DNA of 64,000 bases, taken from assembly GCA_963780345.1 (NCBI GenBank), contig CAWABU010000002.1, forward strand, positions 595,512 to 659,511. The letters are read 5' to 3'. The DNA comes from an uncultured Acidimicrobiaceae bacterium. Lineage in GTDB: Bacteria > Actinomycetota > Acidimicrobiia > Acidimicrobiales > Palsa-688. Every line of letters starts with the position of its first letter. Positions within the stretch are counted from its first letter, which is position 1. Below the pieces are notes generated by a model, which was given only the letters and a program-made list of their open reading frames with translations, did not search any database and was not told the DNA's origin. The position numbers and the translations under genes are program-made. This document shows positions 44,632 through 64,000 of the stretch, piece after piece.

Positions 44632-45018
44632 GAAGAACTCCTCGATGGTCGGTCGGATGAGATCTGATGGGGGCCGACGCCGCCAGCTGCTCGCGACCGA
44701 CAACCCCTACCGGGAGTCTCGCCCTCGGAGCCCGGGCGGCTCCGCGCCACTCCACCACCGGGAAGGAGGGCCCAGCGCGGGCCGTGATACGGGCCCATGT
44801 CGTGACCGTCGAGAGCTGGACCGGCCCGCGCCAACCAGCCCAGGACCGTTCCTGTGGCAGCTGTTGACCGGAAGTTGTTGGTTCCTGGTGAGCCAGTGGA
44901 TGGAGCCCGATCAAGATCGTGCCCGTCGAAGCGTTGGATGAAGGGGTGTAGCCACGATGGGTAAACCGTGGGATGACGACGGGGCCGCAGGACTGTGGCC
45001 CGTCGGAGGTGAGGCATA

Positions 45019-47931: not shown

Positions 47932-48773
47932 ACCACTGGGCGGCCGAAGCGTTCACCGCCGAGGAGTTCGAGGATCCGTTCGATCCCGGTCCCACCGTGA
48001 GCATCCGGTCGTTGAAATCAGCGGTCAAGCGACGGAAGCGGCTGTGGATTGCGACGGCCTTCGCGGGACTGATTCTGGGCGCCAGCCTCCACGTCCTCCT
48101 CCCGAGCAAGGTGGCGGCGGTTTCCAGGCTGTATCTGATCCAACCAGCGGGGGCCGACCCGACCATCGCCATCACCAATGACCTCAACCTGCTCGGGACT
48201 CGCACGGTGGCGGTCGCCGCGTCGGGCGTACTGCAGTCTGGCGCCACTCAGCCCCTGACTTCCTACAAGGGGTCGGCCCAGGGCAGCGCCCTGCTGGCGA
48301 TCAAGGCCACCGGCCCGACCGGAACCGAGGCCGCGGCCAGGGCCAACGCCGTGGCCAAGGCCTTCCTCCAGGTTCGCGCTCAGGTCCAGAAGCAGGCGAC
48401 GGACGCCGAGATCACAACGCTCAGCGCCGAAATCCAGTCCCGCCAGGCCGACATGGCGTCATCCAGGAACGCGGCCCAGCAAAGCCAGGACCGGTACCAG
48501 ATCGGGATATTCCAGGACCAGATAGCCCAGGACAAAGCCGGTCAATCTGCGGTGGTTCGCAACAGCGTCGTGCTCGACCCGGCGTATGTCGTGGTGGTGT
48601 CGGCCAAGAAGACCGCCATCAAGGACGGGCTGGCCGGGCTGATCGCGGGGCTCGCCCTCGGCATCACCATCGTGATCCTGGGTGAGTTGCTGTCCGACCG
48701 GGTCCGCGGCCGTTCTGACGTGGCGTCCGCGCTCGGCGCGCCGGTCGAGTTGAGCGTGGGCCGGCTCAAGTGA
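47919..48773 (+). CDS. Wzz/CapA-like chain-length-determinant membrane protein
   Basis: N-terminal TM (LWIATAFAGLILGASLHVLL), a coiled periplasmic domain, C-terminal TM (GLAGLIAGLALGITIVILG) and the RGRSDVASALGAPVEL linker motif. GTGA overlap with the next gene. Confidence 0.6.
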   Translation: MAGIDHWAAEAFTAEEFEDPFDPGPTVSIRSLKSAVKRRKRLWIATAFAGLILGASLHVLLPSKVAAVSRLYLIQPAGADPTIAITNDLNLLGTRTVAVAASGVLQSGATQPLTSYKGSAQGSALLAIKATGPTGTEAAARANAVAKAFLQVRAQVQKQATDAEITTLSAEIQSRQADMASSRNAAQQSQDRYQIGIFQDQIAQDKAGQSAVVRNSVVLDPAYVVVVSAKKTAIKDGLAGLIAGLALGITIVILGELLSDRVRGRSDVASALGAPVELSVGRLK

Positions 48774-49423
48774 CCCGGTGGTGGAAGGCTGCCCGGCTCC
48801 GGCGGCGATTGAACCATCCCACGCCCGCGTTGCAGTTGATCGTGCGGCGGCTGCGGGTTCAGCTCCAGAACGCGCCCGGTGAAGCGCTGGCCCTGGTGGA
48901 GATCGGGTCGGCCGAACCGGCCGCTGTCGCCCTGGCGTCGCTGGCCCACCTCCTGGCGTCGGACGGCCAACGGGTGGTCCTGGCCGACACCGCCGAGGGC
49001 CGCCCCTTGTCCACCCTCGTCCGCGGATCCTGCGAGGCGGGATCGCTCTGCATGGTGTCGGTGAAGGGGCAACCGGTCGGTCTCTTCGTCGCTCCGGCCG
49101 ACCCAACCCGGATGGCGGACCTGGACGCCGGCGAGGACGCCGATGTGGTCCTGGTCCTGGCCAGCATCGATCCCGCCCTGGGCGCGGACCACGTGGCGGC
49201 CTGGGCCGGAGATGCCGTCGTGATGGTACGGGCCGGCGAAGCGACGTCCTCGCGGATCGACGGGGTGGCCAAGCAGCTTCGCGAGGCGCGCGTCCTCATT
49301 CGCTCAGCGGTGCTCATCGGGACCGACTCCGACGACTACAGCTCCGGCCTTCCTGCCCCTCGCCCCCACGGGCCCGACCCTGCCGACCTTCTCCTCCAGT
49401 CCCTCAATGCCTCCGGGCACTGA
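48770..49423 (+). CDS. CapB/BY-kinase-like domain protein lacking Walker A (predicted pseudo-ATPase)
   Basis: Block-by-block similarity to the BY-kinase at 1-996 (ALVEIGSAEP..RVVLADTAEGRP ~ ILVSSPYSNEGKT..RIGVVSCDLRKP; DADVVLVLASIDP ~ FEIVLIDSPP), but GKT is replaced by AEP. About 55% identical to 60208-60872. Confidence 0.55.
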   Translation: MTRWWKAARLRRRLNHPTPALQLIVRRLRVQLQNAPGEALALVEIGSAEPAAVALASLAHLLASDGQRVVLADTAEGRPLSTLVRGSCEAGSLCMVSVKGQPVGLFVAPADPTRMADLDAGEDADVVLVLASIDPALGADHVAAWAGDAVVMVRAGEATSSRIDGVAKQLREARVLIRSAVLIGTDSDDYSSGLPAPRPHGPDPADLLLQSLNASGH

Positions 49424-49429
49424 CGCCGA

Positions 49430-51079
49430 TCAGGGCCGGTAGACACTCTCCTGGTCCTGGGGGGCGAAGCGATCCCCTGAGCCGTTGGTGTTGGTCGTCC
49501 CGGCCGTCCACTGCGACCACGTCGAGAAGTCGCCCTGCGAAAAGGCGACAAACCGCCATGGCCCGTTGTACGTGTTGTGCTCGAAGTGATTGTTCTGCTG
49601 GTTGGAGATGGCGTTGGGGACAACCCAGGCCCGGTATGGCGCCAGGGTGCCGAAGATGCCAAAAAGGGCGTTGTAGCCACACCCGGTGCTGCTGCCCGGA
49701 TGGGCGATGGCCCGGGTGCAAGCGGCACCGAGCGCCGCCGGGTTGAAGTTGAACGTATTGCCGCTGACCGTCACGTTCTGGGTCTTCCACCGACAATTGT
49801 CGAAGTAGTCGGGGTTGGCACCCGGCGTATCGGCCGGCAGGTGCTGGGCGCAGGTGGCCCGCGTGTAGCGGCCTGGTTCGATCAGGGTGCAGACCGCGTC
49901 CACGCTGACCCCGCAAACCCGGCCGGGGCTGTCGTACAGCGTTACTCCACCCCAGTTGTTCGTCAGGACGTTCCCGGCCACGAGAAACTGCCCGCTGTAC
50001 TCGCCAGGTACTCTCCGGTCGGAGCCGGACTCCGAGATGTAGATGGCCGAGCCCGGGAAGTCTGGTGTGTCGTTGTGGGTGCCAGCACCGATGTCATTGC
50101 CGATCAGAGTGTTGTCGGTGATGCGGGCGTTATAGGAGATCTCGTACATGATCCCTTCGCCGTAGTTGTTGGCGATGTAGTTGTGGGAGATGTCGAATCC
50201 GGCGTTGTTGGTGTCCGCCCACAGCCCCGGATCTCCGTTGTCATGGACATAGTTCCCGGTGACGACGCCGCCGATCGTCTCCCAGAACTTGCCGCCGCCC
50301 GCGCAACCACAGTCAGGATTGGCTCCGCCCGGGTGGTCGTACGCACCCGCGGTGTCGTTGTAGGAGATCTCGTTGTTGGTCAGCGTGACGTGCCGGGACT
50401 CAAAGCTGATGAAGCCGTACTCGCCGTTGTGGGTCAGGCAGTTATTCGTGACCGTCGAGTTCGTGCCGACCAGGACGCCTGCCCCATTGACGTTATCCTT
50501 GATCAGGTTGTATTCGATGCGCCAGTTGCTGTAGCCGCCTTCCCCGACGACCGCCGCCCCCTCGCCGGCCATGAAGTCCTCGATCGTCAGATACTTGATC
50601 GTCACGTTGGTGTCCGCAGCCTCGGCGTAGGTGCTGTTGGATTCCACGGCGTAGTTGTTCTGGCCTTGACCGCTCAGGATGGCCCCTGGCGCACCGACGA
50701 AGGTGTCGCCCGGCGCGGCCTGAATCTGGGCGTACGGACCGGAGCCGAGGGTGTGAACGCCCGGCGCGAACCAGTAGACGGTGTTCGGCCGGATGCGATA
50801 GTTGATGACAATTTCGGAGTTGCTGTTGTCGCCGGCGGGAATCGTCACCGCGCCGGTCGGGGGGGTTCGGTAAGGGCTGGTGAACCCGGTTTCGCACCAG
50901 GTCACAGGCGGGGACAGGGGGGCCGCGTCAGCCCCGGTGCCGGGAGAGGGAGAGGGGGGTCGGGCGGAGACGGTCGTCGGGGGTGAGCCGCGGGTCGAGT
51001 CCGCGAACGGCGCGCACGCGGTCAGACCCAGGCCCCCGCCGAAGGCCAGCGCCGCGATCAGAAGAAAGGCGCGCTTCAC
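49430..51079 (-). CDS. right-handed parallel beta-helix repeat lipoprotein (pectate-lyase-fold; putative polysaccharide lyase/hydrolase)
   Basis: Lipobox LTAC after a signal peptide (GTG start at 51077-51079). Repeated NNxIxxN beta-helix rungs (TNNCLTHNGEYGF, TNNEISYNDTAG, SHNYIANNYGEG, TDNTLIGNDIGAG). Confidence 0.7.
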   Translation of the reverse strand: MKRAFLLIAALAFGGGLGLTACAPFADSTRGSPPTTVSARPPSPSPGTGADAAPLSPPVTWCETGFTSPYRTPPTGAVTIPAGDNSNSEIVINYRIRPNTVYWFAPGVHTLGSGPYAQIQAAPGDTFVGAPGAILSGQGQNNYAVESNSTYAEAADTNVTIKYLTIEDFMAGEGAAVVGEGGYSNWRIEYNLIKDNVNGAGVLVGTNSTVTNNCLTHNGEYGFISFESRHVTLTNNEISYNDTAGAYDHPGGANPDCGCAGGGKFWETIGGVVTGNYVHDNGDPGLWADTNNAGFDISHNYIANNYGEGIMYEISYNARITDNTLIGNDIGAGTHNDTPDFPGSAIYISESGSDRRVPGEYSGQFLVAGNVLTNNWGGVTLYDSPGRVCGVSVDAVCTLIEPGRYTRATCAQHLPADTPGANPDYFDNCRWKTQNVTVSGNTFNFNPAALGAACTRAIAHPGSSTGCGYNALFGIFGTLAPYRAWVVPNAISNQQNNHFEHNTYNGPWRFVAFSQGDFSTWSQWTAGTTNTNGSGDRFAPQDQESVYRP

Positions 51080-51237
51080 GCCTAGTGGGCCGGCCAGAAA
51101 CTCGACGCCGGAAACTCGGCAGTCAGAACGCCTGATTGCATGGCGACACCAGGCCGCGAGTTTCCGGCGTCGAGTTCGCAGGCAGCCCACTAGCCCGCGG
51201 CCGGACCTTGCCCGGTGCGGACCTCCCGACGCCGACC

Positions 51238-52140
51238 CTACCGGCCGCGTCTCCACGCGGCACCAATACCGTCGCCGGGCCACCAATGATTGCGAGGCTG
51301 CTCACTGAAGAAGAGGTACTGACGCCCGGTCCGCTCGGCCCAATCGGAGAGGGCCGATGAATCGTGGGCATTGTCAGAGAGAATGATGGCGTCGTCGCGG
51401 AGACGACTTTCGACCGCGGCCAGTTCCCTGGTTTCGTAGTCGTAGGTGTGAAGGCTGTCGTGAAGGAACATGTCCACGCCCTCAGCGCCCGCGAGCACCT
51501 CGGTCGAGTCGCCCGTGCGGCGGTCTATGACCTCAGCCCACGGCCCTCCGATGAGGTACCCGGCCTCCGGATCGATATCGATCGTCGTCAGCCGACCGTG
51601 CCCATTTCGGAGCAGGGCGGCAGCGATGGCACACGAACCAAGGCCCAGGTGGGTGCCGGTCTCGATGATGCAATCGGGCTGCTTGGCCCGGACGAGGGCA
51701 TACCATCCGAGCCGCCGCGCCCACCGCGGCTCCTTCGGGGATATGCCGCGGCGCGGACCGGACGACAATCGATCCGTCAGATGGTCGAAGAGGCCGCGGT
51801 CGTCCTCGAGTTCCTGCATCCACGCCCGCACCTGTTTGACGTCCGCTCCGGATACAGCCGCGACAAACCAGGCCAGCTGGTCACGGTTGAGCGAATCCAG
51901 CTCGTACGTGAAGTTGGTCGTCTCGCGGTCACGGACCAGCCAATCGACCGACCGCCCGATGACGTGGGCATCGTAGCGCGCCACCAGCAAGGTGCGCAGG
52001 GGGAACGCCGCCCCTCTGGCTGCGGATGAGTTTGCGAGCCGGTGTCGGACTCTCGACTGCATGGCGCTGGCACCCTTTGCGACTGTGATCATGGGGTTCG
52101 TGCTCACCTCGTGTGGAAGGTCTTCATTGATGGCGGACAT
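51238..52140 (-). CDS. class I SAM-dependent methyltransferase (TylF/MycF macrocin-O-methyltransferase-like family)
   Basis: ..CIIETGTHLGLGSCAIAAAL.. SAM-binding motif and ..MFLHDSLHTYDYE.. typical of TylF-like enzymes. The start may be internal (52062). Confidence 0.6.
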   Translation of the reverse strand: MSAINEDLPHEVSTNPMITVAKGASAMQSRVRHRLANSSAARGAAFPLRTLLVARYDAHVIGRSVDWLVRDRETTNFTYELDSLNRDQLAWFVAAVSGADVKQVRAWMQELEDDRGLFDHLTDRLSSGPRRGISPKEPRWARRLGWYALVRAKQPDCIIETGTHLGLGSCAIAAALLRNGHGRLTTIDIDPEAGYLIGGPWAEVIDRRTGDSTEVLAGAEGVDMFLHDSLHTYDYETRELAAVESRLRDDAIILSDNAHDSSALSDWAERTGRQYLFFSEQPRNHWWPGDGIGAAWRRGR

Positions 52141-52172: not shown

Positions 52173-53420
52173 CTAATGGGCGGGGTGCGGACTGAGCCAG
52201 AAGCCATCTCGAGCTTCCGACCTGCGGCCGGCGCGGGGGACAAGGAGGGACGCCGCCAGCGTGAGATCGAGCAAGTAGATGGTGGGTTCACCCATCCCCG
52301 TATCGGTGTACGAAGCGAACAGGCAATAGGCGATCAGGAAGAGGGCAAGAGCGCTGGTGGGCCCCCGGGGTCGCAGCAGAGCCGTGATCAAGAGAACGAG
52401 GAAGATGGCCGCTTCGAGAACACAGCCCACGATTCCCTGGTTCTGGTAGGTGGCGACCCAACTGTTGTCAATCGGGAGTCCGTTGTCGACCGTTTGGTTG
52501 ATCACAGAGTCATTGGTCATCCCGGAGCCGAGAATCTTGTTGGTCTCCGGACGAGACTCGGTGAAAACCAGATGCCAGGCGTTGGTACGGCCGGACAGAT
52601 TAGAGAGAGCCTGGGCGTTCTGGCCCCGGACGAGCCACGCCGTGATCGCCGGGGAGAGGGGCACCAGGACGGTCAGGATCACGACCAGAGAAATCGCAAA
52701 GGTCCGGCGAACCCGTTGCTTGGTGACGAACAGGCTCAGGGCTGCGACGAGGAGGCCGACCACGAGGCCGCCCAGGGCAGTGCGCGTGTGCGTCGCGAGC
52801 AGAGCGATGAAGCCCCCGCCAATCAGCAGCATGGCCGGCTTGCGGCGAATCATGCCGCACAGCCACAGCACCACGGTCAAGCCAGTGAGCTCGGCCGTAT
52901 AATGCGCCGCTTGCGGGGCGGTCATCGGCCAAATTACCCCATTGAGCCGAGGGCTGCCGTAGTTCAGAGAAAAGGCCCGGCTCGGCGAGATGAGAATCCC
53001 CAGGAACAACGATCCGAGGATGGCGGTCAGCACCAGGAGCTGACCGCGTAGCAGGACCAGTCCTCGATCCCGGAACCAGGGGGTGAGCAGCCAGATGACG
53101 GCGAGGAAGACCAGAAAGCGAACACTTCTGTAGGTCGTCCCGAGCCCGACGAACCTGACGCTCATCATAAAGGCGAGGAGACCCATCAGGGTGTAGAGGC
53201 CGAGAAACAGATTCGGACGGATGATGCCCTTTCGATTGACCGTCAACGCCACTATCAGCGCGGCCACCAGGGCACCCTGGGTCAGCAGCTGCCCAAACTT
53301 GTGCGGGATAGGAAGCACCAGCGTCGGCTTCGCAAAAGCGAGCGTGTTCAGGAACAGGAGGGCCCAGACCGCGGTGACGTGCCGCAGGCGGCGCCTGTCG
53401 ACGGGGGCCTCCAACTGCAT
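52173..53420 (-). CDS. O-antigen ligase/Wzy-like polymerase family membrane protein
   Basis: About 10-12 TM helices with one large extracytoplasmic loop, in a polysaccharide locus. Start chosen at MQLEAPVDRR. The ORF extends to 53573. Confidence 0.6.
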   Translation of the reverse strand: MQLEAPVDRRRLRHVTAVWALLFLNTLAFAKPTLVLPIPHKFGQLLTQGALVAALIVALTVNRKGIIRPNLFLGLYTLMGLLAFMMSVRFVGLGTTYRSVRFLVFLAVIWLLTPWFRDRGLVLLRGQLLVLTAILGSLFLGILISPSRAFSLNYGSPRLNGVIWPMTAPQAAHYTAELTGLTVVLWLCGMIRRKPAMLLIGGGFIALLATHTRTALGGLVVGLLVAALSLFVTKQRVRRTFAISLVVILTVLVPLSPAITAWLVRGQNAQALSNLSGRTNAWHLVFTESRPETNKILGSGMTNDSVINQTVDNGLPIDNSWVATYQNQGIVGCVLEAAIFLVLLITALLRPRGPTSALALFLIAYCLFASYTDTGMGEPTIYLLDLTLAASLLVPRAGRRSEARDGFWLSPHPAH

Positions 53421-53520
53421 GGGGGCAGGTGCGCTCAGCAAGGTCACGGACCGACTCCTTCCGCCCTGCTGAGAGACGCTGGACGCCGGTTTGATACACG
53501 GCCTTCGCGGACCTCGACAC

Positions 53521-55713
53521 TCACCGTCGTGGTCCGATCGCTCTGCGTGTTCCAGGTGCATCGGTGGCGCCACCGCGAACCCGGTGCAGCTTGGAAGGCC
53601 GGCGCCGCACGAGAGGTTCGCCTACGAGCAGGCCGGACCCACCGTCGAGACGGATCTGGCCGCGCCGGCGAGAAGCGGCGGATGGCCAGTGTCGCCCACC
53701 GGATCGAATTGCAGCGAGGTCGCCAGCCGAGTTGTGGCCGGTACAGATCCCCTGGCCGAGAACGGTCGTAATCGGCTCCCGCTCACCAAAGGCTCTCGAG
53801 TACCAGCCGAGCACGGGGTCGGTTGCTCCCCTGACCAGGGACCAGGTCAGATCGCCCGGCAGCTCCAGTGTGGCCGAACGGCCGCCACTCTCCTGGTCAT
53901 CCCAGTCGAGATGCACCCTGCGACCGTTGATCACGGCGTTCACGGCCGGACCGAGGTGAAAGGCCACCTGCAGCCGATGGGCGCCGCCCGTCCACACCTG
54001 GTCCATGATCTCGATGCGCCTCTCGGCGCTCAGGAGCCGAACCGTGCGCCGATGACGCGCCGGGGGATCGAGCGCGGCGTAGCCATCATGTTCGGCCGAC
54101 CAGTGCGTCACCCGACCTTCGGCGTCGGAGCGAACCTCGAGACATCGGGTTCGAGCCGACCGGATCCAGAGGGTCGGACCACCTGAAGTCGATTGGTCCC
54201 GGCCGGCTATCTCGACGGTGTTGTGCCCGAGCGTGGACTTGAAGTAGCGGCGCCAGCTGGGCTCGCTGCTGTAACAGTAGGTTCCCGGGTCGACCAGGAT
54301 CTCGGTCCCGCCGTGCCGGACCTCGACCGCCAGGGCGTCGGCGTGAGCGTGGGCGGCGATCGACAGGAATCCGTGGGGACCGCCGTCGCAGCGACACCAG
54401 ATTTCGGGACCGTGGCCGGGAACACTTCGCATGATGGTCAGGCCGGCGTCGTCGAAGTGGTCCGGGCGCGGCGAGGGACGTCGCGCCTGCGGGTGGAATC
54501 CGACCAGGGCTGCCACCAGGGTGCTCATGGCGTCGGGTGGGGCAACGGGCCACCAGTCCGCGGCGCCGAATACCGCGGCGCCGAGGGCCAGAAGGCTGGC
54601 CCACCGGTTGGAACCCTGACCTTCGAGCACCAGCGCCCGGCCGTCGTCGCTGTCGCCCTGGCGCGGGGCGTGCAGCTCGATGTCGACGACCGATGCGACG
54701 ACGTCGAGCATGCGGCCCAGCTCTTCCCAGATGCCCGCCGGCAGAACGTAGCCGGCTGTCTCGGCCTCGGCGGCGGCCAGGAGGCCGAGCTCGGCGACGA
54801 AACCGTGGTAGTCAAAAGCCATCTCGCGGTTGACGCCGCTCGGAAACGTATTGTTCGCCAGCTGGTCACCCAGGAGGGCGGCGGCATCAGCCGCCCACTT
54901 CTGACTGTCCTCGAACCAGTTGAAGGCCAGAGCGGCCGCGAGCTGCCCGGCCGCCTCCGCGATCACGTGGTTGTTGGCCGACGACCCGCGACTCTGGAAG
55001 TTGGCCAGGTAGTGCTGGTGCCACCAGATCTGCGCCAACGCGTCGGGGTTGTCTTCGAACAGCTCCGGCGCGCCCGCCCAGCCGTCCAACAACCGGCGGA
55101 CCCATACCCAGGAGATGAGGCGCACTCCGAGCTCTATGCCGCTGGTCCAGTGGATTCCGGACAGGACCGGGTTCTGCCCCCACCACGATCGCAGCTGACG
55201 GGCGGCTCCCTCGGCGTATTTCTCGTCTCGCGAGAAGGCGAAGGCCGCCGCCAGCACCGTCACGTGATGAAGGCGGGACATTTCCCACACCTGCTTGACG
55301 TTGCCGGTTACCCGGGTATCGCGATGATCGACCGAAAAGCAATACTCGTGTTGAGGGGCCCGCGTCCCCGATACCGGATCGAGGAACCAGTCCGGTGCGG
55401 CCACGTCGGGACGCGGCACACCCAGCACGGTCCACCGCCCGGCCAGAATCTCCTCGGCCGCGGCGACAACGGCCTGGCGAGAGTCGCCGGGAACGGCCGC
55501 CAGCGCTCCGGAGGGAAGGATGGCAGTGAACGCGCCAGCCGGGCCGGCCGGGTGGTCCAGCGGCACACTGTCGATCCGGGGCTGCCGGCCCGGGCGGACC
55601 TGGTACCGCATCCAGGCTCGTTGCCGGGCGTAGTCCGACAGGCGCCAGCCAACCTCCTGGAGGGACATCCGCTGAAGCCGCCGGAGGTACCACTCCAGTC
55701 TGGACGTCCTCAC
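53521..55713 (-). CDS. heparinase II/III-like family protein (alginate-lyase-like N-domain + Hepar_II_III C-domain)
   Basis: N-terminus MRTSRLEWYLRRLQRMSLQEVGWRL, the (alpha/alpha)-toroid region with NNHVIAEAAGQLAAALAF, and the C-terminal beta-sandwich with AHAHADALAVEV. The last ~90 aa are low-complexity and overlap the Wzy-like gene. Confidence 0.7.
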   Translation of the reverse strand: MRTSRLEWYLRRLQRMSLQEVGWRLSDYARQRAWMRYQVRPGRQPRIDSVPLDHPAGPAGAFTAILPSGALAAVPGDSRQAVVAAAEEILAGRWTVLGVPRPDVAAPDWFLDPVSGTRAPQHEYCFSVDHRDTRVTGNVKQVWEMSRLHHVTVLAAAFAFSRDEKYAEGAARQLRSWWGQNPVLSGIHWTSGIELGVRLISWVWVRRLLDGWAGAPELFEDNPDALAQIWWHQHYLANFQSRGSSANNHVIAEAAGQLAAALAFNWFEDSQKWAADAAALLGDQLANNTFPSGVNREMAFDYHGFVAELGLLAAAEAETAGYVLPAGIWEELGRMLDVVASVVDIELHAPRQGDSDDGRALVLEGQGSNRWASLLALGAAVFGAADWWPVAPPDAMSTLVAALVGFHPQARRPSPRPDHFDDAGLTIMRSVPGHGPEIWCRCDGGPHGFLSIAAHAHADALAVEVRHGGTEILVDPGTYCYSSEPSWRRYFKSTLGHNTVEIAGRDQSTSGGPTLWIRSARTRCLEVRSDAEGRVTHWSAEHDGYAALDPPARHRRTVRLLSAERRIEIMDQVWTGGAHRLQVAFHLGPAVNAVINGRRVHLDWDDQESGGRSATLELPGDLTWSLVRGATDPVLGWYSRAFGEREPITTVLGQGICTGHNSAGDLAAIRSGGRHWPSAASRRRGQIRLDGGSGLLVGEPLVRRRPSKLHRVRGGATDAPGTRRAIGPRR

Positions 55714-56954
55714 CTTTTGTCAGACTTCACTGGCTCCCGTTCGACGCCGTCGCCGCCAGTCGCCAGAAGGTGCTCGTAGACGCCGAGATATCTCGGCGCC
55801 TGGTGGGTCCAGGCCAGTTCTTGCTCCACCCGGGCGCGTCCAGCCGCACCCATCGACCGCCGTCGTGCTTCGTCGTCGACGAGGTCGATCACCAGGGCAG
55901 CCAGTTCCTCGACGTCGTTTGGAGTGGCATAGGCCCCGGCCTCGGCTGCCGATGCCCTCGTCTCGAGGAGATCGAAGGCCACGACCGGAAGACCAAAGGC
56001 CATGTACTCCATGGTCTTGTTCATGGTTGAGAGATCGTTGAGGGGATTCTTCGGATCCGGCGAAATCCCGACGGCCGCGCTCGACAAGATGGCGGCGACC
56101 GTCTCATCCGGGACTCGTCCGGTGAACTCCACCGCGTCAACCAGGTTGAGACGGTCTCGAGTCTCGATCAGCTCGTTGAAGCAGTCGCCTGCTCCGATCA
56201 GCGTGAAGGCGATGTCCCTCCTCTGCAGGCGGTTGACGATGATATCGGCGGCCTCGAGGACGATGTGAACTCCGTCCTGGGGCCCCATCACACCGATATA
56301 CGCAACCAGGTGCTGTCGACCTCGCCGGAGGCTCGGGTCGACCGACCGGGGCTTGAGCCGGGTTGGGTCCGGACCGGTGCGGACCACGGTGACCCGATCG
56401 GGCGCCAATCCGTGCCGCTGGATCACGACGCCCCGATAGGAGCCGTTGGTCGAGATGACGTGGTCCGCGGCTCTCACGGTTCGCCGCTCGAGGAAGCGCA
56501 GGGCCCGGTAGAGCAGCCGGGACCCTTCCGGGAAACGGGACTGGTAGGTCTCGGGGCAGAGGTCGTGGTGATCGAAGACGAATCGGGACCCCCACAACCA
56601 ACGGCAGAGCAGGCCGATGGGCCAGAAGATATCGGGAGGATTGCAGCTTTGCACCGCAGCAAACCCCCGGCCGCGGCTCGCCCGGAGGGCCAGCCACAAG
56701 GTGGCCACAAAGGAGTAGAGGTACTCGGCGAAGAACGATGCTACGCCGCCACTGGACGCAAACGGCCGGTACTTGAACAACTCGACGCCTTCGACCACGG
56801 CATGGCCTGGATCGCCCGGGCCCTTGGGACAGACCACGGCCACCTGATACCCGGCGTCCCGCAGGGTCCGGCATTCCAGCCAGACCCGCCGGTCGAACGG
56901 TACAGGAAGATTCTGGACGATGATCAGGATGCGCTTGTTGTTGCCGGCATTCAT
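55710..56954 (-). CDS. GT4-family glycosyltransferase
   Basis: N-terminus [28 protein letters not shown]-domain with ..EYMAFGLPVVAFDLLETR.. . Confidence 0.8.
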   Translation of the reverse strand: MNAGNNKRILIIVQNLPVPFDRRVWLECRTLRDAGYQVAVVCPKGPGDPGHAVVEGVELFKYRPFASSGGVASFFAEYLYSFVATLWLALRASRGRGFAAVQSCNPPDIFWPIGLLCRWLWGSRFVFDHHDLCPETYQSRFPEGSRLLYRALRFLERRTVRAADHVISTNGSYRGVVIQRHGLAPDRVTVVRTGPDPTRLKPRSVDPSLRRGRQHLVAYIGVMGPQDGVHIVLEAADIIVNRLQRRDIAFTLIGAGDCFNELIETRDRLNLVDAVEFTGRVPDETVAAILSSAAVGISPDPKNPLNDLSTMNKTMEYMAFGLPVVAFDLLETRASAAEAGAYATPNDVEELAALVIDLVDDEARRRSMGAAGRARVEQELAWTHQAPRYLGVYEHLLATGGDGVEREPVKSDKR

Positions 56955-58597
56955 TCCGGACTCCCGGCGTCGACGCCCGCCAGGTCCGGAACGGTCAGCG
57001 GCGCGGCCATCAGGCCCCCCGGTGCCGGGCCATCCTGCTCGTCCCCCCGGTTCGGAAGAACGGCCCGGATGGCACGGACCGCGACCGCGTGGGCCGTGTT
57101 GGCGAGGATCGACAGATCCAGGCCGATCGACCAGTTGTCCACGTAAAACAGATCGAGGCGTTGGTACGCACTGAAGGCCGGGTTGTCGCGGGCCTCGCTT
57201 TGCCAGAGACCGGTCAGCCCGGGGCGCATTTGATACCGGCGCCGGAGCTCCGTATCAAAATGGAGATCCTCGTGCGGCAGGGCCGGCCTCGGCCCTACCA
57301 GGCTCATGGTGCCGGTGAGAACGTTCCAGAGCTGGGGGAGCTCGTCGATGCTCGTCGCCCGCAGGAGCCGGCCGATCCGGGTCACGCGAGGATCGTGCGA
57401 GGCTTTGAAGAGCGGCCCTCCCGTTCTCTCGTTCATCGCCTGCAGGTCGGCCAGCATCTGGGCGGCGTTGGGCACCATGGTGCGGAGCTTCAAGACGGTG
57501 ATCGGCTTGGCGTCCTGACCGACAACGGTGTTGTGGTACAGGACCGGGCCGCCGTCCTCGAGCTTGATACGCAGAGCTGCCACCAGCACGACGGGTATCA
57601 CTACAGGAGCCACCGCGACCGTAAGGAAGACGTCGATGGCCCGTTTGATCAATTTCTGCCACGTCGGGGCCCGGGGTGGTTCGACGCGAAGGACCGGGAT
57701 TCCGGATACGGGAGTGAGCTGAAGGCGCCGGCTCGACAGGCTCGGAAGACCAGGCCAGATCTGCACGTCCAGGCCCGCAGCCAGGCCCTCGCTGACCGCG
57801 GCGCTGGTCGCATCGGCTCGCAGCGCCCCGGCCACCACGATGACGGCGCTGGCGCCGGTACGCCTCGCCATATCAGGAAGGGCGCCGACGTCGAAAGGCC
57901 GTGAGACCTTGTCCATCCGTTCGCACCCCTGTCGCTCCCCCACGACACCCACGACGCGGTAGCCGAGCTCGGGCTCATCGGACAACATCTGCCACAACGC
58001 CGCCGCATCCTCGTTGCTCCCAACCAGGATGGTAGGCCGAAGGAGACGCCCCCTCGAATATCGGCCCTTGAGCCACCGACCAAAGCGCCATCGAAGGGCG
58101 AGAATCAGCCCGGCGCTGATGGCCGCGCCCGCGAGTGCGACGCCAGCCGGGTCCGCACCCGCCAGCCAGGCGCAGGCCGCATACACGAACCCTCCGGCCA
58201 GGGCAGAGAACAGCACCCGCACTACCTCCCGCGAGTGCAGGGCGCACACCCGCGAGCGGTAGAGCCCGGCCTGCTGCATCGCGGCCAGAGTCGACCCGAT
58301 AGCTGCGGCCGCGCCGAGGAACTGTCGGCCCGTGCCGGCCCCCTGAGCGAGCAGGGCCAACGGCACCCAGGCGAGGGTCAGGGCGAGGGCGTCGCTCAGC
58401 GTCAGGTGATGCCGGAGGGACAGCCCTGACACTCCCGCCTTGGGGCCGGCGCCGGCAGGCGCGCCCTCTGTGACGACAGCAAGCGGTACTGATCCCGCGT
58501 CAGAGGAGCCGTCCTGGTGGTTCTTTGCCCCCGAAGGGAGTGAATCGATCATTGAGGCCACGTTGCGCTCCTCGCCATTCCCGAGTCCCGGACCCAC
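56951..58597 (-). CDS. polyprenyl-phosphate glycosyl-1-phosphate transferase (WbaP/CpsE-like priming sugar transferase)
   Basis: C-terminal bacterial sugar-transferase domain [16 protein letters not shown]...[32 protein letters not shown], and an N-terminal 4-5 TM region. Confidence 0.85.
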
Positions 58598-58829
58598 AGC
58601 AAACGCCGTCGGGCAGTGGTGAGATCCATTACTCAGGAGGACCGGGCGCGGGACGTGATACGGCGACCGTTGATGTATTTAATTAAGTCCCCCCGGCTCA
58701 TGCCACCGTGCTTTGCGTTTGTCGCGCCCATCGGGGCTTCGCCAGCCTCCGGACGCGGCGCGCTCGCTGGGGACCTGACCTCAGGCCACCGGCGGGCCTG
58801 ACCGGGTCGGCGGGTGTGGTGACGCTCCC

Positions 58830-60872
58830 ATGGCGGTGACATCGCCTACCCGGCCACCGGCCGTCTCTGATACGGGATCCGGCCCAGCCACACCCGCGGC
58901 GAGCACCGGAATCCGCGGCAGTCGCCGGGCCGCCACGACCCTCCTCGACCAGGGCTTCTCCTCGGTCTCGAACTTCGCAGTCGGCGTCGCGGTCGCCAGG
59001 GTAGCGGGCGCGGCCGGTCTTGGTGCCTTTGCCTTTGCGTACGCCGGCTGGCTGGTCCTCGCCGACATGCACCGGGCCCTCATCACCGACCCCATGGCCA
59101 TCGAGGGTGACGTCCGCGTGGGAGGGACGAATGGCATCGAGCGGGGCTTCGCCGCCGAGGTCCTGTTGGGCTCGGGTGCTGCGGTGGTGTTTGCGGCGCT
59201 CGGAGCGGCTCTGATGCTGGTCCATGCGCATACCTTCGCGACCGCCATGCTCTTCCTGGCCCCGTGGCTGCCGATGCTCCTGGTCCAGGACTACTGGCGA
59301 TGGGTGAGCTTCATGAGCCAGCAACCCGGGCGGGCCCTCGCCAACGACACTGTCTTCAACTGCGTGCAGGGCGCCGCCTTCATCGCCATCTACGTCACCC
59401 ATCTGCGCTCGGTGGCGGCCGTAATCACGGCATGGGGACTCGGGGGCGCGGCCGGAGCGATCTTCGGTCTCTGCCAGTACCGGGTGATTCCGACGCTCCG
59501 GGGCGGACTATCGCTGCTGCGCAGCCGTTGGGGCATGAGCAAATGGCTGGCCGCCACGTCGTTGATGGGGTGGGGCTCGAGCCAGGCCTATGTGTACGTG
59601 GCCGGAGCCATCCTGGGGCCGGCGGGTCTCGGCGGGCTGAAGGCGGCCCAGACATTGGTGGCCGGTCCGGCCGGGGTGCTGATTCAAGCCGGCGGGAGCA
59701 TCGGGCTGCCGGAAGCGAGCAAAGCCCACGCCGAAAAGGGCTGGGCTGGCCTGGTCAAGGTGTCGCGAATGGTGACGGCAGCCGGTGTCGTGAGCTTCGC
59801 GGCCGGTGCCCTGGTGATCCTGATCTGGGGGCGGGTCCTGCTCTCCAAGATCTACGGACCACAGTTCGCCCATGAGGAGCTCGCGGCCCTGCTGATCGCG
59901 ATCGCCTACATCTTCATGGGGATATCCGTAGGCCCGGTGCTCGTCCTGAAGCAAACCCGCAACGCGCATCGAATCTTCTACACCCAGGTGCTCACCCTGG
60001 TCGTCTCGGTGTCCACGGTCACGCTGCTCTCAATCCGCTACGGGGTGACGGGGGCCGCGATGGCCACCATTGCGACCTACGTGGCCGCCTCCGCCGGCGT
60101 CCTCTGGTATCAGCACCGCGTACGCGGTGCGGAGGCCGAGCGGCCCGAGGAGGCCACGGTGGCGGCCGAGGAACCCGTCCTTCCGGTGGTCCAACCGCAT
60201 GTGGCCGTCCAGCCGCCATTGCTCACCTGGTTGAAGACCGCCCGGCTCCGGCGGCGCTTGAGCCGACCAACACCGGTCCTCCAACTGGTCGAACGCCAGC
60301 TGAGGGCCCAGCTCGAAGCCGCGGGCAGCGGATCGCTCGCGCTGGTCGAGGTCAACGCGGCCGAGCCGGCGGCGCTGGCGATCGGCGCGCTGGCTCGGTC
60401 GCTGGCGTCGGAGGGCCGGCGGGTGGTCATGGCCGACGCCGCCGCGGGCCGGCCCCTGGCGGCGCTGCTTGGCGGTCACATGGCCGCCGGGGCCGTGACC
60501 ATGGTGTCGATCGAGGGACACCCGGTGGGGCTGTTTGTGGCCCCGGATGACCCGGCCCAGATGGCGCAAGAGGAGGCCGGCGAGGACGCTGACGCCATCC
60601 TGGTCCTGGCGACCGCGGACCCGGCCCTCGGAGCCGACCACATCGCCGCATGGGCGAGCGACGCGGTGGTCATGGTCCGGGCCGGCCGAACCAGCGCCAC
60701 CTGGATCGAAACCGTTCGCCGCCAGCTGCGCGAGGCGGATATCACCATCAGGTCCGCGGTACTGGTGGGCGCCGATCCGACCAGCCGATCCTCCGGCCTG
60801 CCGGGTGCCTACGAGTTGATGGGTGACCCCACCGAACATCCGCTGACGGTGGCGCTCAGAGCGGTCGGGTGA
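58830..60872 (+). CDS. Wzx-like MOP-superfamily polysaccharide flippase fused to a C-terminal P-loop-less BY-kinase-like domain
   Basis: Residues 1-460 are a ~12-TM polysaccharide-biosynthesis-protein fold. Residues 460-680 (LLTWLKTARLRRRLSRPTPVLQL..ALVEVNAAEP..DADAILVLATADP..) are paralogous to 48770-49423. Confidence 0.65.
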   Translation: MAVTSPTRPPAVSDTGSGPATPAASTGIRGSRRAATTLLDQGFSSVSNFAVGVAVARVAGAAGLGAFAFAYAGWLVLADMHRALITDPMAIEGDVRVGGTNGIERGFAAEVLLGSGAAVVFAALGAALMLVHAHTFATAMLFLAPWLPMLLVQDYWRWVSFMSQQPGRALANDTVFNCVQGAAFIAIYVTHLRSVAAVITAWGLGGAAGAIFGLCQYRVIPTLRGGLSLLRSRWGMSKWLAATSLMGWGSSQAYVYVAGAILGPAGLGGLKAAQTLVAGPAGVLIQAGGSIGLPEASKAHAEKGWAGLVKVSRMVTAAGVVSFAAGALVILIWGRVLLSKIYGPQFAHEELAALLIAIAYIFMGISVGPVLVLKQTRNAHRIFYTQVLTLVVSVSTVTLLSIRYGVTGAAMATIATYVAASAGVLWYQHRVRGAEAERPEEATVAAEEPVLPVVQPHVAVQPPLLTWLKTARLRRRLSRPTPVLQLVERQLRAQLEAAGSGSLALVEVNAAEPAALAIGALARSLASEGRRVVMADAAAGRPLAALLGGHMAAGAVTMVSIEGHPVGLFVAPDDPAQMAQEEAGEDADAILVLATADPALGADHIAAWASDAVVMVRAGRTSATWIETVRRQLREADITIRSAVLVGADPTSRSSGLPGAYELMGDPTEHPLTVALRAVG

Positions 60873-60933: not shown

Positions 60934-63138
60934 TTACAGGCGCACGGCTAGCCCGCTCGCCAGGCTGGGGTTGACGGCGAGCGTGGCGCGGGTCGTCGCG
61001 ACCAGGGAGGACAGCGATATCGGCATCGGCCCGCCCGTGCGAACGGCGTGGAGAAAGGCGTCGATCTCGGCCCGCTGACCCTTGTCGGGCGAGCCGAAGG
61101 CCAACCGTGAGCGCTTCCGCCGACCGGTCCACACCGTGGCTCGCTTGAAGTTGTCCAGGCGAGCGCTGCGACCACCCCGAGACACCTCGAAGGTCTCCTT
61201 CGGAAAGCGGCGGTGGCCGTTGGTCACATAGGTGACCGATGCCAGGGAGCCATCGGGATAGCGCAGCACCACCTGGAGGTCGCGGGCATCGCGTCCGCCC
61301 AGGGCGGAGACTTCGATCGGATCGGCTCCGATCCACCAGGAGACCGTGTCGATGAAATGACCGCCTTCGCCCACGAACCGCGATCCTTCCAGGTCTTCGT
61401 TCCCGTACCAGCTGTCCGCTGATAACGGTCCGGCGTTGACCAGGTACCTGGCCACGGCGGGATCCGCCGTGGCGCCAAAACGGGCCCGCATCTCCGTGAG
61501 CATGGGGGCGAATCGTCGGTTGAAGCCGACCGTCACCCGGTCGTTCCCGGTCGCATCCACGGTCTGCAACACCCGGTCGAGTTCTGCGCCGGTCAGCGCC
61601 AGTGGCTTCTCGACAAAGACCGCCTGGTTGGACTCGAGGGCCCGGCAGACCAGGTCGGCATGCGAGCTGTGGCGGGTGACGATGAACACCGCGTCGAGGC
61701 TGTCGTCGGCCAGCACGACCTCAGGATCGGTGGAGGTATTCGCGAAGCCGAACTTCCGCTGGGCGTTCACCGCGCCGAGCGATCGCCTGGTCGCGACCTG
61801 CGCCAGCTGCACGTCCTGGCGGCCCACGAGGTGTGGCAGCAGCATCGACGAGGCGTAGTTGCCTGCGCCGATGAAGCCGAGCCGGACCGGACGCCCATCC
61901 ACGGCCGGACGGCCCTGGCCGCGGCGAGGTCCGCCCAGCACGGCTCGCGGGCTGGGATCGGCAACGCGGGCTGCCGGCGAGGAACCCCCGTCTGCGGCCG
62001 GGCCGGTCGGGTACTCGAAGAGGAAACCGATACCGCGGAGGGCGTGCGTCTGGAGCCGCTCGTAGACGTCCACCGCCTCGGTGACGGGATAAACCCCGGA
62101 CATCAGCGGCTCCAGGTCGATGTCACCCTTGGCCACCAGGTCGATGAAGCAGGCCAGATTGCGCCGCTCGGTCCAGCGCACGTAGCCCACCGGGTAATCG
62201 TGGCCCTGGACCTCGTAGCCCTCGTCGTAGCGACCGGGACCATACGAACGCGAGAAACGGAGGTCCAGCTCCTTTTCGTAATACGCGTTCCATGGCAGGT
62301 CGAGCTTGGTCTTGCCGATATCGACCACCGTGGCGCGATCCCGGGCGATCCGGGCGGCGATCTCGGTGGGGCCGTTGGATGAGCTCCCGGCGACCAGCAG
62401 AACGCGGTCGGCACCGAAGCCGCCAGAGGCCTCGGCGATGGCGGACTCGATGGCGGCCACCCCCTCGTCATCCGGTGCGGCGGCCAGGACAGCCCCCGTC
62501 TTCTCGGCCAGCCGGCATCGCTCCGCCACGACGTCGAGGCCGAAGACCCGCGCTCCGGAGGCGACCAGGAGCTGGACCACCAGCTGCCCGACCAATCCCA
62601 GACCGATGACGCACGCGGTATCGCCGAGTTGGGCCTCGGCCTGGCGGACGCCCTGCAGAGCAATGGCACCCACGGTGCTGAACGCCGCGAACTGGGGAGC
62701 CACGCCATCGGGCACCGGTACGCAGAGGTTGACGGGAACCCAGTTCAACTCGGCGTGAAAGGCGAATTCGTTACCGGCGCAGGCTACGACCTGCCCGACC
62801 GAAAACTCCTCGGCACCCGGCCCGACCTCCTCGACCACGCCGGCCAACGAGTACCCGAGCGGGGTGTAGGAGTCCAGGCGGTTCATCGCCTTCCGGTAGG
62901 CGCTGACCGGTCCCTGCTGGACCACCGTGTCCAGGACCTTTTTGGCCTGCTCGGGCCGGGCTCTCGCCATGCCGAGCAGCGACATCTTGGACTCGTTCAC
63001 CTTCATCAGCTCGGTCCCGGTGGAGATCAGGGAGTAGAGCGAACGGACCAGCACCCCGCCCGGGGCGCAGGCCGGCGGAGGCACATCCAGTACCGTCAGC
63101 TCGCCGGAGCGATAGTTTTGGGCTACTTGCTTCATCTC
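60934..63138 (-). CDS. bi-domain oxidoreductase: zinc-type MDR alcohol dehydrogenase + Gfo/Idh/MocA NAD(P)-dependent oxidoreductase
   Basis: N-terminal half has the MDR pattern (GVLVRSLYSLISTGTE, Rossmann VIGLGLVGQLVVQLL). C-terminal half is Gfo/Idh/MocA (VRLGFIGAGNYA, DAVFIVTRHSSHADL, EKPLALT). Start chosen at MKQVAQNY. Confidence 0.75.
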   Translation of the reverse strand, partial: EMKQVAQNYRSGELTVLDVPPPACAPGGVLVRSLYSLISTGTELMKVNESKMSLLGMARARPEQAKKVLDTVVQQGPVSAYRKAMNRLDSYTPLGYSLAGVVEEVGPGAEEFSVGQVVACAGNEFAFHAELNWVPVNLCVPVPDGVAPQFAAFSTVGAIALQGVRQAEAQLGDTACVIGLGLVGQLVVQLLVASGARVFGLDVVAERCRLAEKTGAVLAAAPDDEGVAAIESAIAEASGGFGADRVLLVAGSSSNGPTEIAARIARDRATVVDIGKTKLDLPWNAYYEKELDLRFSRSYGPGRYDEGYEVQGHDYPVGYVRWTERRNLACFIDLVAKGDIDLEPLMSGVYPVTEAVDVYERLQTHALRGIGFLFEYPTGPAADGGSSPAARVADPSPRAVLGGPRRGQGRPAVDGRPVRLGFIGAGNYASSMLLPHLVGRQDVQLAQVATRRSLGAVNAQRKFGFANTSTDPEVVLADDSLDAVFIVTRHSSHADLVCRALESNQAVFVEKPLALTGAELDRVLQTVDATGNDRVTVGFNRRFAPMLTEMRARFGATADPAVARYLVNAGPLSADSWYGNEDLEGSRFVGEGGHFIDTVSWWIGADPIEVSALGGRDARDLQVVLRYPDGSLASVTYVTNGHRRFPKETFEVSRGGRSARLDNFKRATVWTGRRKRSRLAFGSPDKGQRAEIDAFLHAVRTGGPMPISLSSLVATTRATLAVNPSLASGLAVRL

Positions 63139-63157
63139 TTCGAAGTGTCCTTCCGGA

Positions 63158-64000
63158 TTACAGCGCAACCCCGGCGGCGCGCATCTGCGTGTACCAAATC
63201 TCAAGGGTCAACAGCTGCCAGATCTGCTTCGAACGATCTTCACGACCGTTCCGGTCATCGGCGATCAGCGCCTCGAGCGGACCGCGTTGCAGGAAGCCGG
63301 CATCCACCAGCTCACCCCGAACGAGCTTTTCATCAATCAGCCCCCGGAGATCGTGGGAGATCCAGGCCCGCAGAGGGGCGGAGAAGGAGGCCTTGGGTCG
63401 GTGGACGATCTCGGCCGGCAGCCAGGCCAGGGCGGCTTCCTTGAGGGCCGCTTTCTGGGTCCGGCCCCTGACTTTCTGCTCGCCGGCGAGGGAGAAGGCG
63501 GCCTGGAACACCATCGGATCGACGAACGGCACCCGAACCTCAGTGGACGCGGCCATGCTGGCCCGGTCCGTGTAGGTCAGGTTGAGACCGGGGAGAAAGA
63601 GGCGGGCGTCGGCGAGACACATGCGATTGACATGGTCGGCAAGGCGGTTGTCGGTGTAGATCTCGAGATGCTCGTTCAGCACATCATCCACATCCGGACC
63701 GAGCTTCGGGTCGAGAAGGGCGCCGAGCTCCCGCGAGTCGTAGAGGGTATAGCTGCGGCGGAAGGCGGCTTCCTCGGGTAGCTCGGAGAAGGTCAGGAAC
63801 CGTTTGGCCCAGCGGGAGTAGCGCAGACCGCGGCCCGCCACGGCCACAGGAAGCCGGTCGACGGTGCCGGAAGCCGCCCCGCGCACGAATCCGGGGAGGC
63901 GCCGGTAGCGGGCCGCCATCACGCAGGCCAGATGCTTACGATAGCCGCCGAAAAGCTCGTCGGCACCCATGCCGGAGAGGATGACCTTGACTCCCGCGTC
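63158..64000 (-). CDS. asnB: asparagine synthase (glutamine-hydrolysing)-like amidotransferase, 5'-partial (runs off the window)
   Basis: The C-terminal synthetase domain, with GADELFGGY and the downstream region, matches AsnB-family enzymes. The frame is open to position 64000. Confidence 0.8.
   Translation of the reverse strand, partial: DAGVKVILSGMGADELFGGYRKHLACVMAARYRRLPGFVRGAASGTVDRLPVAVAGRGLRYSRWAKRFLTFSELPEEAAFRRSYTLYDSRELGALLDPKLGPDVDDVLNEHLEIYTDNRLADHVNRMCLADARLFLPGLNLTYTDRASMAASTEVRVPFVDPMVFQAAFSLAGEQKVRGRTQKAALKEAALAWLPAEIVHRPKASFSAPLRAWISHDLRGLIDEKLVRGELVDAGFLQRGPLEALIADDRNGREDRSKQIWQLLTLEIWYTQMRAAGVAL

Follow-up and report, generated by a model that had tools for sequence, protein, structure and literature searches.

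Fusion of a predicted Wzx-type flippase and a BY-pseudokinase domain in an uncultured Acidimicrobiaceae bacterium

The gene at 58830-60872 in a 64,000-nucleotide stretch of DNA from an uncultured Acidimicrobiaceae bacterium of soil (contig CAWABU010000002.1; hereafter, the window) encodes a predicted Wzx-type flippase joined through a linker to a domain that has the fold of a bacterial tyrosine kinase (BY-kinase) and appears to have lost its catalytic function. A paralogue of this domain is encoded in the same window as a stand-alone protein, beside Wzz2, a small co-polymerase of the polysaccharide co-polymerase (PCP) type. The parts, namely a Wzx flippase and a dead BY-kinase-like domain paralogous to the pseudokinase of Wzz2, are identified with high confidence. 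The architecture bears on how lipid-linked repeat units are handed over from Wzx to Wzy, a question made sharper by the view that Wzy lies inside an octameric co-polymerase cage. A complex of Wzx, Wzy, and Wzz has been proposed for nearly two decades and, to our knowledge, has never been seen. The proposal draws on genetic and two-hybrid evidence, and a PCP has been put forward as the bridge between Wzx and Wzy in Rhizobium (PMC4182512). The scaffold domain fused to the flippase is of a kind that usually lies beneath the chain-length-control protein, which suggests that the flippase and the co-polymerase machinery are physically linked, and a conserved and selected covalent link between Wzx and a duplicated co-polymerase scaffold domain points to a specific contact surface, formed by the pseudokinase domain and the groove that receives the PCP tail.

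Architecture of the fused protein

The fusion gene is one unbroken open reading frame (ORF) of 680 codons with an ATG start. Its G+C content at third codon positions (GC3) is 0.80-0.90 in this frame from end to end, junction included, and so steady a signal gives no hint that a frameshift or a stop was overlooked. The N-terminal extension MAV(T/S)xPTRxPAxSDTGSG recurs in a homologue from a Logan short-read assembly (P0287), and this favors the ATG at 58830 as the start codon of the fusion. The initial annotation, made from the sequence alone, had described a single fused ORF, and this description is upheld both by the steady GC3 and by the same architecture in separately assembled relatives.

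The N-terminal module matches PF13440 (Polysacc_synt_3) weakly, at 19.1 bits against a curated cut-off of 23. More than 300 homologues of the fusion protein, most of about 450 residues and from metagenome-assembled genomes (MAGs) of Acidimicrobiales, carry PF13440 or PF01943 and are annotated as oligosaccharide flippases or O-antigen/teichoic acid export proteins. Many of them, at 50-79% identity, combine precomputed PF13440/PF01943 matches with flippase names, and about 320 Acidimicrobiales homologues consist of the flippase only. A full-length AlphaFold2 (AF2) model was built on 60 homologues (alignment A3, with the rows of the stand-alone domain left out), and its predicted local distance difference test score (pLDDT) is mostly above 90 over residues 30-440. 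Comparison of the flippase model with the PDB through Foldseek returned only MOP matches (MATE 6fhz, MurJ, and WzxE 9g9p/9g9n), with E-values down to 4.6e-7 and target TM-scores to the lipid III flippase WzxE of 0.73-0.77, of which 0.77 is the maximum. The earlier assignment to the MOP flippases thus agrees with both the AF2 fold and its nearest structural matches, and the module is identified on the model as a Wzx-type MOP flippase with a predicted role in translocating Und-PP-linked repeat units. Members of the same flippase family are also found with other partners, including a Wzy_C polymerase/ligase domain in P0013 and P0028 (974-982 residues) and GT4 glycosyltransferase domains in P0106 and P0119 (~900 residues). 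The joining of pathway proteins to Wzx therefore appears to recur in Acidimicrobiia.

The C-terminal domain, hereafter DOM, occupies residues 464-680, in keeping with the ~220 residues first assigned to it. In a BLASTP alignment, residues 464-669 of the fusion pair with residues 1-206 of the 217-residue product of 48770..49423 at 121/206 identities (59%) with no gaps (E 3e-71); the homology noted initially stands, and the accompanying figure of ~55% identity was slightly low. On this alignment, the paralogy of the fused domain and the stand-alone protein is far beyond chance. DOM has no match in Pfam and NCBIfam at E up to 1 and none among PDB sequences by phmmer, and a profile of 15 family members (alignment A1) reached PDB sequences only with sub-threshold matches to FtsY and the BY-kinase BceF (E 0.17 for BceF). 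As sequence searches failed to identify the domain, fold comparison was needed. The domain model (pLDDT 82.7; predicted template modeling score, pTM, 0.81) was compared with the PDB through Foldseek, and the best 44 matches are all BY-kinase domains (Wzc, Etk, CapA2B2, and BceF), followed by MinD. The match to the BY-kinase fold holds by a clear margin over other P-loop NTPases.

The residues through which a BY-kinase acts are missing from this fold. GK[ST] is absent at the Walker A position in 163/164 aligned family members and in the window copies. LLIDADMRR of BceF aligns with VVMADAAAGR, changing the Walker A' DxD into D-A-A, and VVLID of BceF aligns with ILVLA, whose alanine, A134, is shared by every member of A1. 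In each window copy, a single Tyr falls within the final 40 residues, and there is no Tyr cluster. Following the definition of a BY pseudokinase as a protein with the BY-kinase fold that has lost the Walker motifs and the Tyr tail (PMC12004946), DOM is classified from its model and sequence as a BY pseudokinase, for which canonical ATP binding or hydrolysis is, judging from the motifs, impossible. The lack of both a canonical ATP site and a Tyr cluster argues for a protein-protein scaffold rather than an enzyme. The terms "P-loop-less CapB-like" and "pseudo-BY-kinase" first applied to the domain are hence appropriate on the grounds of fold and motif loss alike.

The linker between the two modules is rich in Pro, Ala, and Glu and spans residues 441-463 by the domain limits; its residues 444-462 have pLDDT values below 50 in the full-length model, and the linker sequences of the fusions P0001-P0006 are mutually unrelated. 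An origin of the linker as a remnant of the Wzz2 tail (ALGAPVELSVG) was considered and dropped, as the linkers of the seven fusions have no common motif.

Distribution, origin, and gene neighborhood

Among the 120 best flippase homologues, whole-query coverage occurs only in P0001-P0006, at 64-79% identity, with P0007 being a frameshifted copy. The fusion is represented by seven diverged lineages, all within one uncultured Acidimicrobiaceae-like clade. P0001, P0002, P0004, and P0006 come from JGI metagenomes, P0002 lies in the same gene neighborhood as the window fusion, and the P0003 fusion is intact on three contigs from different samples. The species-representative genomes hold the fusion in one other case (L002, an uncultured Acidimicrobiaceae MAG; 78% identical, with assembly frameshifts) and the flippase alone in 12. 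Since the same fusion is found in separately assembled, diverged sequences, an assembly artifact is excluded. Across the genomes searched, the architecture is confined to this one clade and is not widely prevalent; direct fusion to the flippase is thus rare within the searches made. Literature searches for fusions of Wzx with kinases or Wzc, or for exopolysaccharide systems of Acidimicrobiia, found no description, and papers on EcpK, PslE, and PssP2 make no mention of a Wzx-pseudokinase fusion. A Sphingomonas paper was discarded as a precedent, as its "fused" refers to cloning. The fusion was unfamiliar to the initial annotation as well, in line with these full-text searches, and it is regarded as a new architectural variant and not as categorically new.

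When the domain sequences are placed on a neighbor-joining tree, the seven copies borne by flippases are monophyletic and group with the stand-alone copies, and the two sets lie within the Wzz-fused ones. This monophyly suggests one duplication and one fusion. In flippase-only relatives (L001, L010, L011, and L012), a single ORF comprising Wzz2 and the domain comes after Wzz1. Each of the three fusion genomes examined (the window, L002, and L015) encodes Wzz2 and the domain in two genes. Comparison of the window with L015 gives dN/dS values of ~0.25 in the domain and ~0.20 in the flippase module, ratios that are approximate since dS, at ~0.93-0.95, is near saturation; dN is 0.66 in the linker versus 0.19-0.24 in the two domains. 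These substitution rates indicate that the fused domain is under purifying selection.

Three further proteins were considered as independent fusions and rejected. P0029 (Wzx-Wzz-domain, 1021 residues; L018 8001-11066) is known from one contig, and its GC3 jumps from ~0.67 to ~0.95 at the junction, being about 0.65-0.80 in the flippase part and 0.90-0.97 elsewhere; chimeric assembly or read-through may account for this protein. P0225 belongs to the same clade and contains frameshift junk. P0246 (1266 residues) has a single representative with a repeated low-complexity junction, its order being a Wzz-like module, the pseudokinase domain, a duplicated PLVSTVLVGAD, the MOP flippase, and a long Pro/Ala-rich repeat tail.

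The fusion gene belongs to a Wzx/Wzy-type polysaccharide locus that extends from ~40.6 kb to the window end (Table 1). Genes for Bac_transf, GT4, a protein with a weak Wzy_C match, and two Wzz-like proteins all lie within 12 kb, and the synteny is kept in L015 and on the P0002 contig. Wzz2 has transmembrane (TM) segments at residues 42-69 and 233-262 and a cytoplasmic tail of 22 residues, as judged by hydropathy. The genes for Wzz2 and the stand-alone pseudokinase share four nucleotides (GTGA) that contain both the TGA stop of the first and the GTG start of the second, and from this overlap the pseudokinase gene is read as translationally coupled to the two-TM Wzz-like gene. The split state of Wzz2 and the domain is kept in L015 and L002 and in proteins of 212-218 residues in JGI data. 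No canonical BY-kinase-type ATPase, low-molecular-weight protein tyrosine phosphatase (LMW-PTP), or PHP phosphatase was found among the ORFs of the 64-kb window, nor was a Walker A motif found in any credible coding frame of it. The absence of a canonical BY-kinase and phosphatase from the window is consistent with a phosphorylation-independent system. A scan of window ORFs yielded no outer membrane polysaccharide export (OPX) partner.

The second co-polymerase gene, Wzz1, contains a 1-nt frameshift near 47163-47170 in the window. By tblastn, the two segments that match the 517-residue Wzz1 orthologue of L001, 46581-46994 and 47167-47832, are in different frames, and the GC3 signal changes frame at ~47100. 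The 338-residue ORF called here (46584-47600) is out of frame after LIRARRDHRL, the true continuation being 47167-47931. Orthologues in L001, L010, L011, and L012 are single proteins of ~517 residues; the break may be an indel introduced by sequencing, or the gene may truly be a pseudogene. DOM', the name given here to the C-terminal half of Wzz1 (L001 18957-19697), is conserved in these four genomes and is P-loop-less. It is not recognized by Pfam and has conserved motifs of its own, AVSSGFA and NPDPxDxTTG. An hhalign comparison of DOM' with DOM gave E 1.9e-5 at 78% probability; its 143 columns are collinear, begin at beta1, and extend as far as the C-terminal PDPxDxTTG/TDxxDxSSG motif. DOM' is thus distantly akin to DOM, which brings the number of degenerate BY-kinase-like domains in the locus to three.

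Several other features of the locus were observed. The 232 bp (58598-58829) that separate the divergently transcribed priming transferase and fusion genes contain a markedly AT-rich stretch, TGATGTATTTAATTAAGT, in a window of 67% G+C, and are probably a shared promoter or operator region. The beta-helix protein (49430-51286) and the heparinase II/III-like lyase (53521-55713) inside the cluster are conserved in relatives and, by analogy with the glycosidase PslG of the Psl system, may trim or degrade the polymer. The pairing of the 60934-63204 oxidoreductase with its asparagine synthase-like neighbor is kept in L015 and on the P0002 contig. DUF4082 proteins flank such polysaccharide clusters both in the window (40645-42453, minus strand) and on the unrelated contig L018 (1-2564). 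Farther away, a 521-residue Tectonin-repeat protein (PF19193; 26770-28338, minus strand) has an unusually low first-position G+C (0.57); Tectonin repeats are mainly known from eukaryotic lectins.

Table 1. Positions of the fusion gene, its modules and motif equivalents, and neighboring genes in the window.
Feature	Position	Strand	Basis
Complete fusion gene, 680 aa: Wzx-type flippase, linker, and BY-pseudokinase domain (predicted)	58830..60872	+	Single ORF, GC3, full-length homologues
MOP/Wzx flippase module (predicted), residues 1-440, helical core ~25-436	58830..60149	+	AF2, Foldseek, weak PF13440 match, flippase-only homologues
Variable Pro/Ala/Glu-rich linker, ~residues 430-463, predicted disordered	60117..60218	+	pLDDT, dN, unrelated linker sequences
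BY-pseudokinase domain (DOM; predicted), residues 464-680	60219..60869	+	
Walker A-equivalent: loop NAAEP between beta1 (LALVEV) and alpha1, no GxxxxGK[ST]	60354..60368	+	Model secondary structure
Walker A'-equivalent RRVVMADAAAGRPL: first Asp kept, second replaced by Ala, then family GRPL motif	60417..60458	+	HMMER alignment to BceF KRVLLIDADMRRGL, conservation in A1
Walker B-equivalent DAILVLATADPALGADH: catalytic Asp replaced by invariant Ala, then family DPAxGADH motif	60591..60641	+	HMMER alignment to BceF YDVVLIDSPPVLAVTDA
Sigma-70-like factor	45013-45687	+	
LuxR-type response regulator	45880-46587	+	
Wzz1, frameshifted, with divergent pseudokinase-like DOM' at 47167-47931	46584-47931	+	Pfam Wzz match on N-terminal part
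Wzz2, small PCP-type co-polymerase	47919-48773	+	Weak matches to Pfam Wzz and TIGR01006/EpsF; hydropathy
Stand-alone BY-pseudokinase paralogue, 217 aa	48770-49423	+	
Right-handed beta-helix (NosD-like) protein	49430-51286	-	
Methyltransferase	51238-52140	-	
Wzy-like polymerase/O-antigen ligase family membrane protein	52173-53573	-	Pfam Wzy_C E 1e-6, below curated cut-off; Wzy_C gene also in L015 cluster
Heparinase II/III-like protein (lyase)	53521-55713	-	
GT4 glycosyltransferase	55710-56954	-	
Bac_transf priming sugar-phosphate transferase, divergent from fusion	56951-58597	-	PF02397 E 2.9e-56; adjacency to fusion kept in L015 and P0002 contig
Oxidoreductase, 756 aa: ADH_N/ADH_zinc_N and GFO/IDH/MocA in one protein	60934-63204	-	
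Asparagine synthase-like gene	63158 to window end	-	

A possible tether between flippase and co-polymerase

In the mechanism proposed here, the cytoplasmic C-terminus of Wzx would bear the catalytically dead BY-kinase-fold domain on a flexible linker of ~25-35 residues. As a duplicate of the pseudokinase that serves Wzz2, the flippase-borne domain would act as a scaffold and bind the same partners as the stand-alone paralogue. This could occur in two ways. First, the cytoplasmic C-terminal tail of Wzz2 would be captured in trans by the flippase-borne domain. Alternatively, the flippase-borne domain would fill a protomer position in a ring composed largely of the stand-alone paralogue beneath the Wzz2 oligomer. 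Through either route, Wzx would be tethered to the co-polymerase/polymerase assembly and flipped repeat units would be delivered beside Wzy without phosphorylation. Since Wzz2 is split from its own pseudokinase in the same clade, partner exchange would be possible. Known pseudokinases bind the C-terminal tail of the PCP, and the cytoplasmic ring of PCP-2 octamers consists of kinase-like domains (PMC12004946; PMC13434223), and thus the same surfaces are most likely used by the flippase-borne copy. A phosphorylation-independent tethering of Wzx to the co-polymerase assembly, argued in this way by analogy, is given an even chance of being correct, and the reading that takes the parts and the tethering together is marginally favored. 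The interpretation put forward in the initial annotation, a coupling of repeat-unit translocation to the co-polymerase machinery, is supported.

Several observations weigh against this reading. The full-length AF2 model has a pTM of 0.68 and comes with no predicted aligned error (PAE), and with its disordered linker it gives no information on docking or oligomers; as only seven sequences cover the domain part, the confidence of the domain in this model is lower. Nucleotide may still be bound through a non-canonical site in the domain. The detachment of Wzz2 from its domain and the Wzx-attached duplicate co-occur, but they represent a single evolutionary event seen in three genomes, and P0029 and P0246, as single contigs, offer no independent Rosetta-stone support. 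In addition, two members of the P0003 cluster are in two pieces, with both breaks in the linker (P0285/P0286 and P0291/P0290). In one, the flippase frame is shifted by a 1-nt linker indel and ends at a TGA sharing bases with the start codon (ATG) of MRAAVLRRRL..., giving a 453-residue flippase and a 214-residue domain; in the second strain the pieces are 434 and 224 residues. Should these splits be genuine, a single mutation separates the fused state from the translationally coupled one, and the covalent link may be inessential. However, the split cases come from long-read MAGs rich in frameshifts (L016 and L017), and so may be errors.

A bolder version of the tethering proposal would treat the fusion as a natural "Rosetta stone," in which the flippase is a physical part of the co-polymerase machine and docks via the cytoplasmic (pseudo)kinase ring or the PCP tail groove. 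This is a tentative idea, put at clearly less than an even chance. If it is true, Wzx and the PCP alike would assemble on the kinase-like layer as a general hub, and a mixed ring of stand-alone and flippase-borne protomers would set the Wzx:PCP stoichiometry in this clade.

By the first alternative explanation, the fusion is neutral: a translationally coupled duplicate directly downstream of wzx was joined to it by one spacer indel, the domain serves as a scaffold for Wzz2 just like the stand-alone protein, and its attachment to Wzx is functionless. The indel and TGA/ATG overlap of the P0003 cluster would illustrate this step, the linker is a fast-evolving low-complexity sequence, and the fusion is restricted to one small clade. 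The fused state has nonetheless been kept in seven lineages diverged to 60-80% identity with a domain dN/dS of ~0.25, and the split cases derive from long-read MAGs in which obvious frameshift errors abound (L016, L017, and L002). Even where split, the domain gene still adjoins wzx, which itself suggests a functional link, and for service to Wzz2 alone no further copy next to wzx would be needed. Neutral fusion is therefore considered unlikely, though it is the strongest of the competing accounts.

It is somewhat less probable that the domain works in cis or as a recruitment module and the co-polymerase plays no part, in which case it would gate Wzx or recruit the priming transferase and glycosyltransferases so as to channel completed units. 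The fusion gene is always adjacent to a Bac_transf priming transferase and a GT4 gene, in other flippases of this family the fusion partner is a GT4 or Wzy_C domain (P0106, P0119, P0013, and P0028), and contacts between glycosyltransferases and a PCP have been reported in Rhizobium (PMC4182512). In characterized systems, however, the only known partners of such domains are PCP proteins (PMC12004946; PMC13434223), the closest paralogue of DOM is the Wzz2-coupled copy, and the model gives no sign of docking onto the transporter.

That the domain is still an active nucleotide-dependent kinase or ATPase, working through non-canonical residues, is very improbable. It keeps the overall NTPase fold, one Walker A' Asp, and the conserved GADH motif, but its beta1-alpha1 connection of ~4 residues is too short for a phosphate-binding loop, it has no Lys/Ser-Thr pair, its Walker B Asp is an invariant Ala, and it lacks a Tyr cluster; there is no phosphatase gene nearby, and the comparable PslE is without kinase activity biochemically (PMC13434223). 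Finally, a false joining of two genes through a lost stop or an indel can be dismissed for practical purposes, for although Wzz1 has a probable 1-nt indel nearby (~47165) and related long-read MAGs are frameshift-rich, the identical architecture recurs in seven separately assembled, diverged sequences (JGI, ENA, NCBI, and Logan) and the GC3 signal is continuous in one frame.

Relation to known pseudokinases, co-polymerases, and flippases

Though a word-indexed protein search with 14 matches had made the domain appear to be an orphan, this was overturned by an exhaustive profile search of 1.84 billion representatives. With E limited to 1e-3, the search recovered 782 family representatives at 50% identity, of which 613 have E-values no higher than 1e-10. 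Architectures were inspected for the best 150 of the 782 family representatives, 170 domain-containing proteins in all. Among these best-ranked members, 124/170 have the dominant architecture and also match the Wzz-like proteins of the window; those tested are ~500-580 residues long, with an N-terminal Pfam Wzz match and the domain C-terminal to it. About 38/170 consist of the domain by itself or are fragmentary. As a rule, then, the family has a "pseudo-Wzc" layout in which a PCP-2 co-polymerase carries an inactive kinase domain, and this kind is already known. The present finding carries the phosphorylation-independent PCP-2/BY-pseudokinase class into Actinomycetota through a large family unknown to Pfam and NCBIfam.

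Canonical BY-kinases include Wzc and Etk (PCP-2a) and CapA/CapB (PCP-2b). In comparison with these, the domain described here is without a P-loop, the Walker B Asp, a Tyr cluster, and a nearby cognate phosphatase. With all four missing, a BY-kinase phosphorylation cycle would not be possible for it.

The stand-alone BY pseudokinases EcpK of Myxococcus xanthus and HfsB of Caulobacter crescentus bind the C-terminal tail of a PCP, EpsV for EcpK and HfsA for HfsB, and have been proposed to be phosphorylation-independent scaffolds (PMC12004946). The window proteins resemble them in the BY-kinase fold, the lack of Walker A/A'/B and of a Tyr-rich tail, the placement in a Wzx/Wzy-dependent cluster, and the PCP partner that has no kinase domain. 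This likeness is drawn from published descriptions, and the present family has its own motifs, GRPL and DPAxGADH. Wzz2 (47919-48773) and the stand-alone domain (48770-49423) reproduce an EcpK/EpsV- and CapA/CapB-like layout, which places the pair, as a new actinobacterial member, in the phosphorylation-independent PCP-2 subfamily already known. The difference lies in the second copy of the window, which is joined to Wzx and not to a PCP, and in the host, an Acidimicrobiia-type actinobacterium, whereas the described cases are Gram-negative.

Inactive versions fused to the PCP are known as well. SMc01795-type proteins were listed by Cuthbertson et al. 2009, as cited in PMC12004946, and PslE of Pseudomonas aeruginosa forms an octamer with a kinase-like domain that has no catalytic Lys and no activity biochemically, the lumen of which probably houses the Wzy polymerase (PMC13434223). 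The dominant architecture of the present family is like that of PslE and the SMc01795-type PCP-2 fusions, with the catalytic Lys and Tyr cluster absent. In contrast, the window domain is detached from Wzz2, its duplicate is attached to Wzx, and the periplasmic part of Wzz2 is very short (~165 residues).

With regard to the flippase, the likeness to Wzx/PST flippases such as WzxE and MurJ lies in the helical MOP core and in a Wzy-type cluster site adjoining the priming transferase. Described Wzx proteins end soon after the last TM helix, whereas the window fusion continues into a C-terminal extension of ~240 residues that is predicted to form an independent folded domain.

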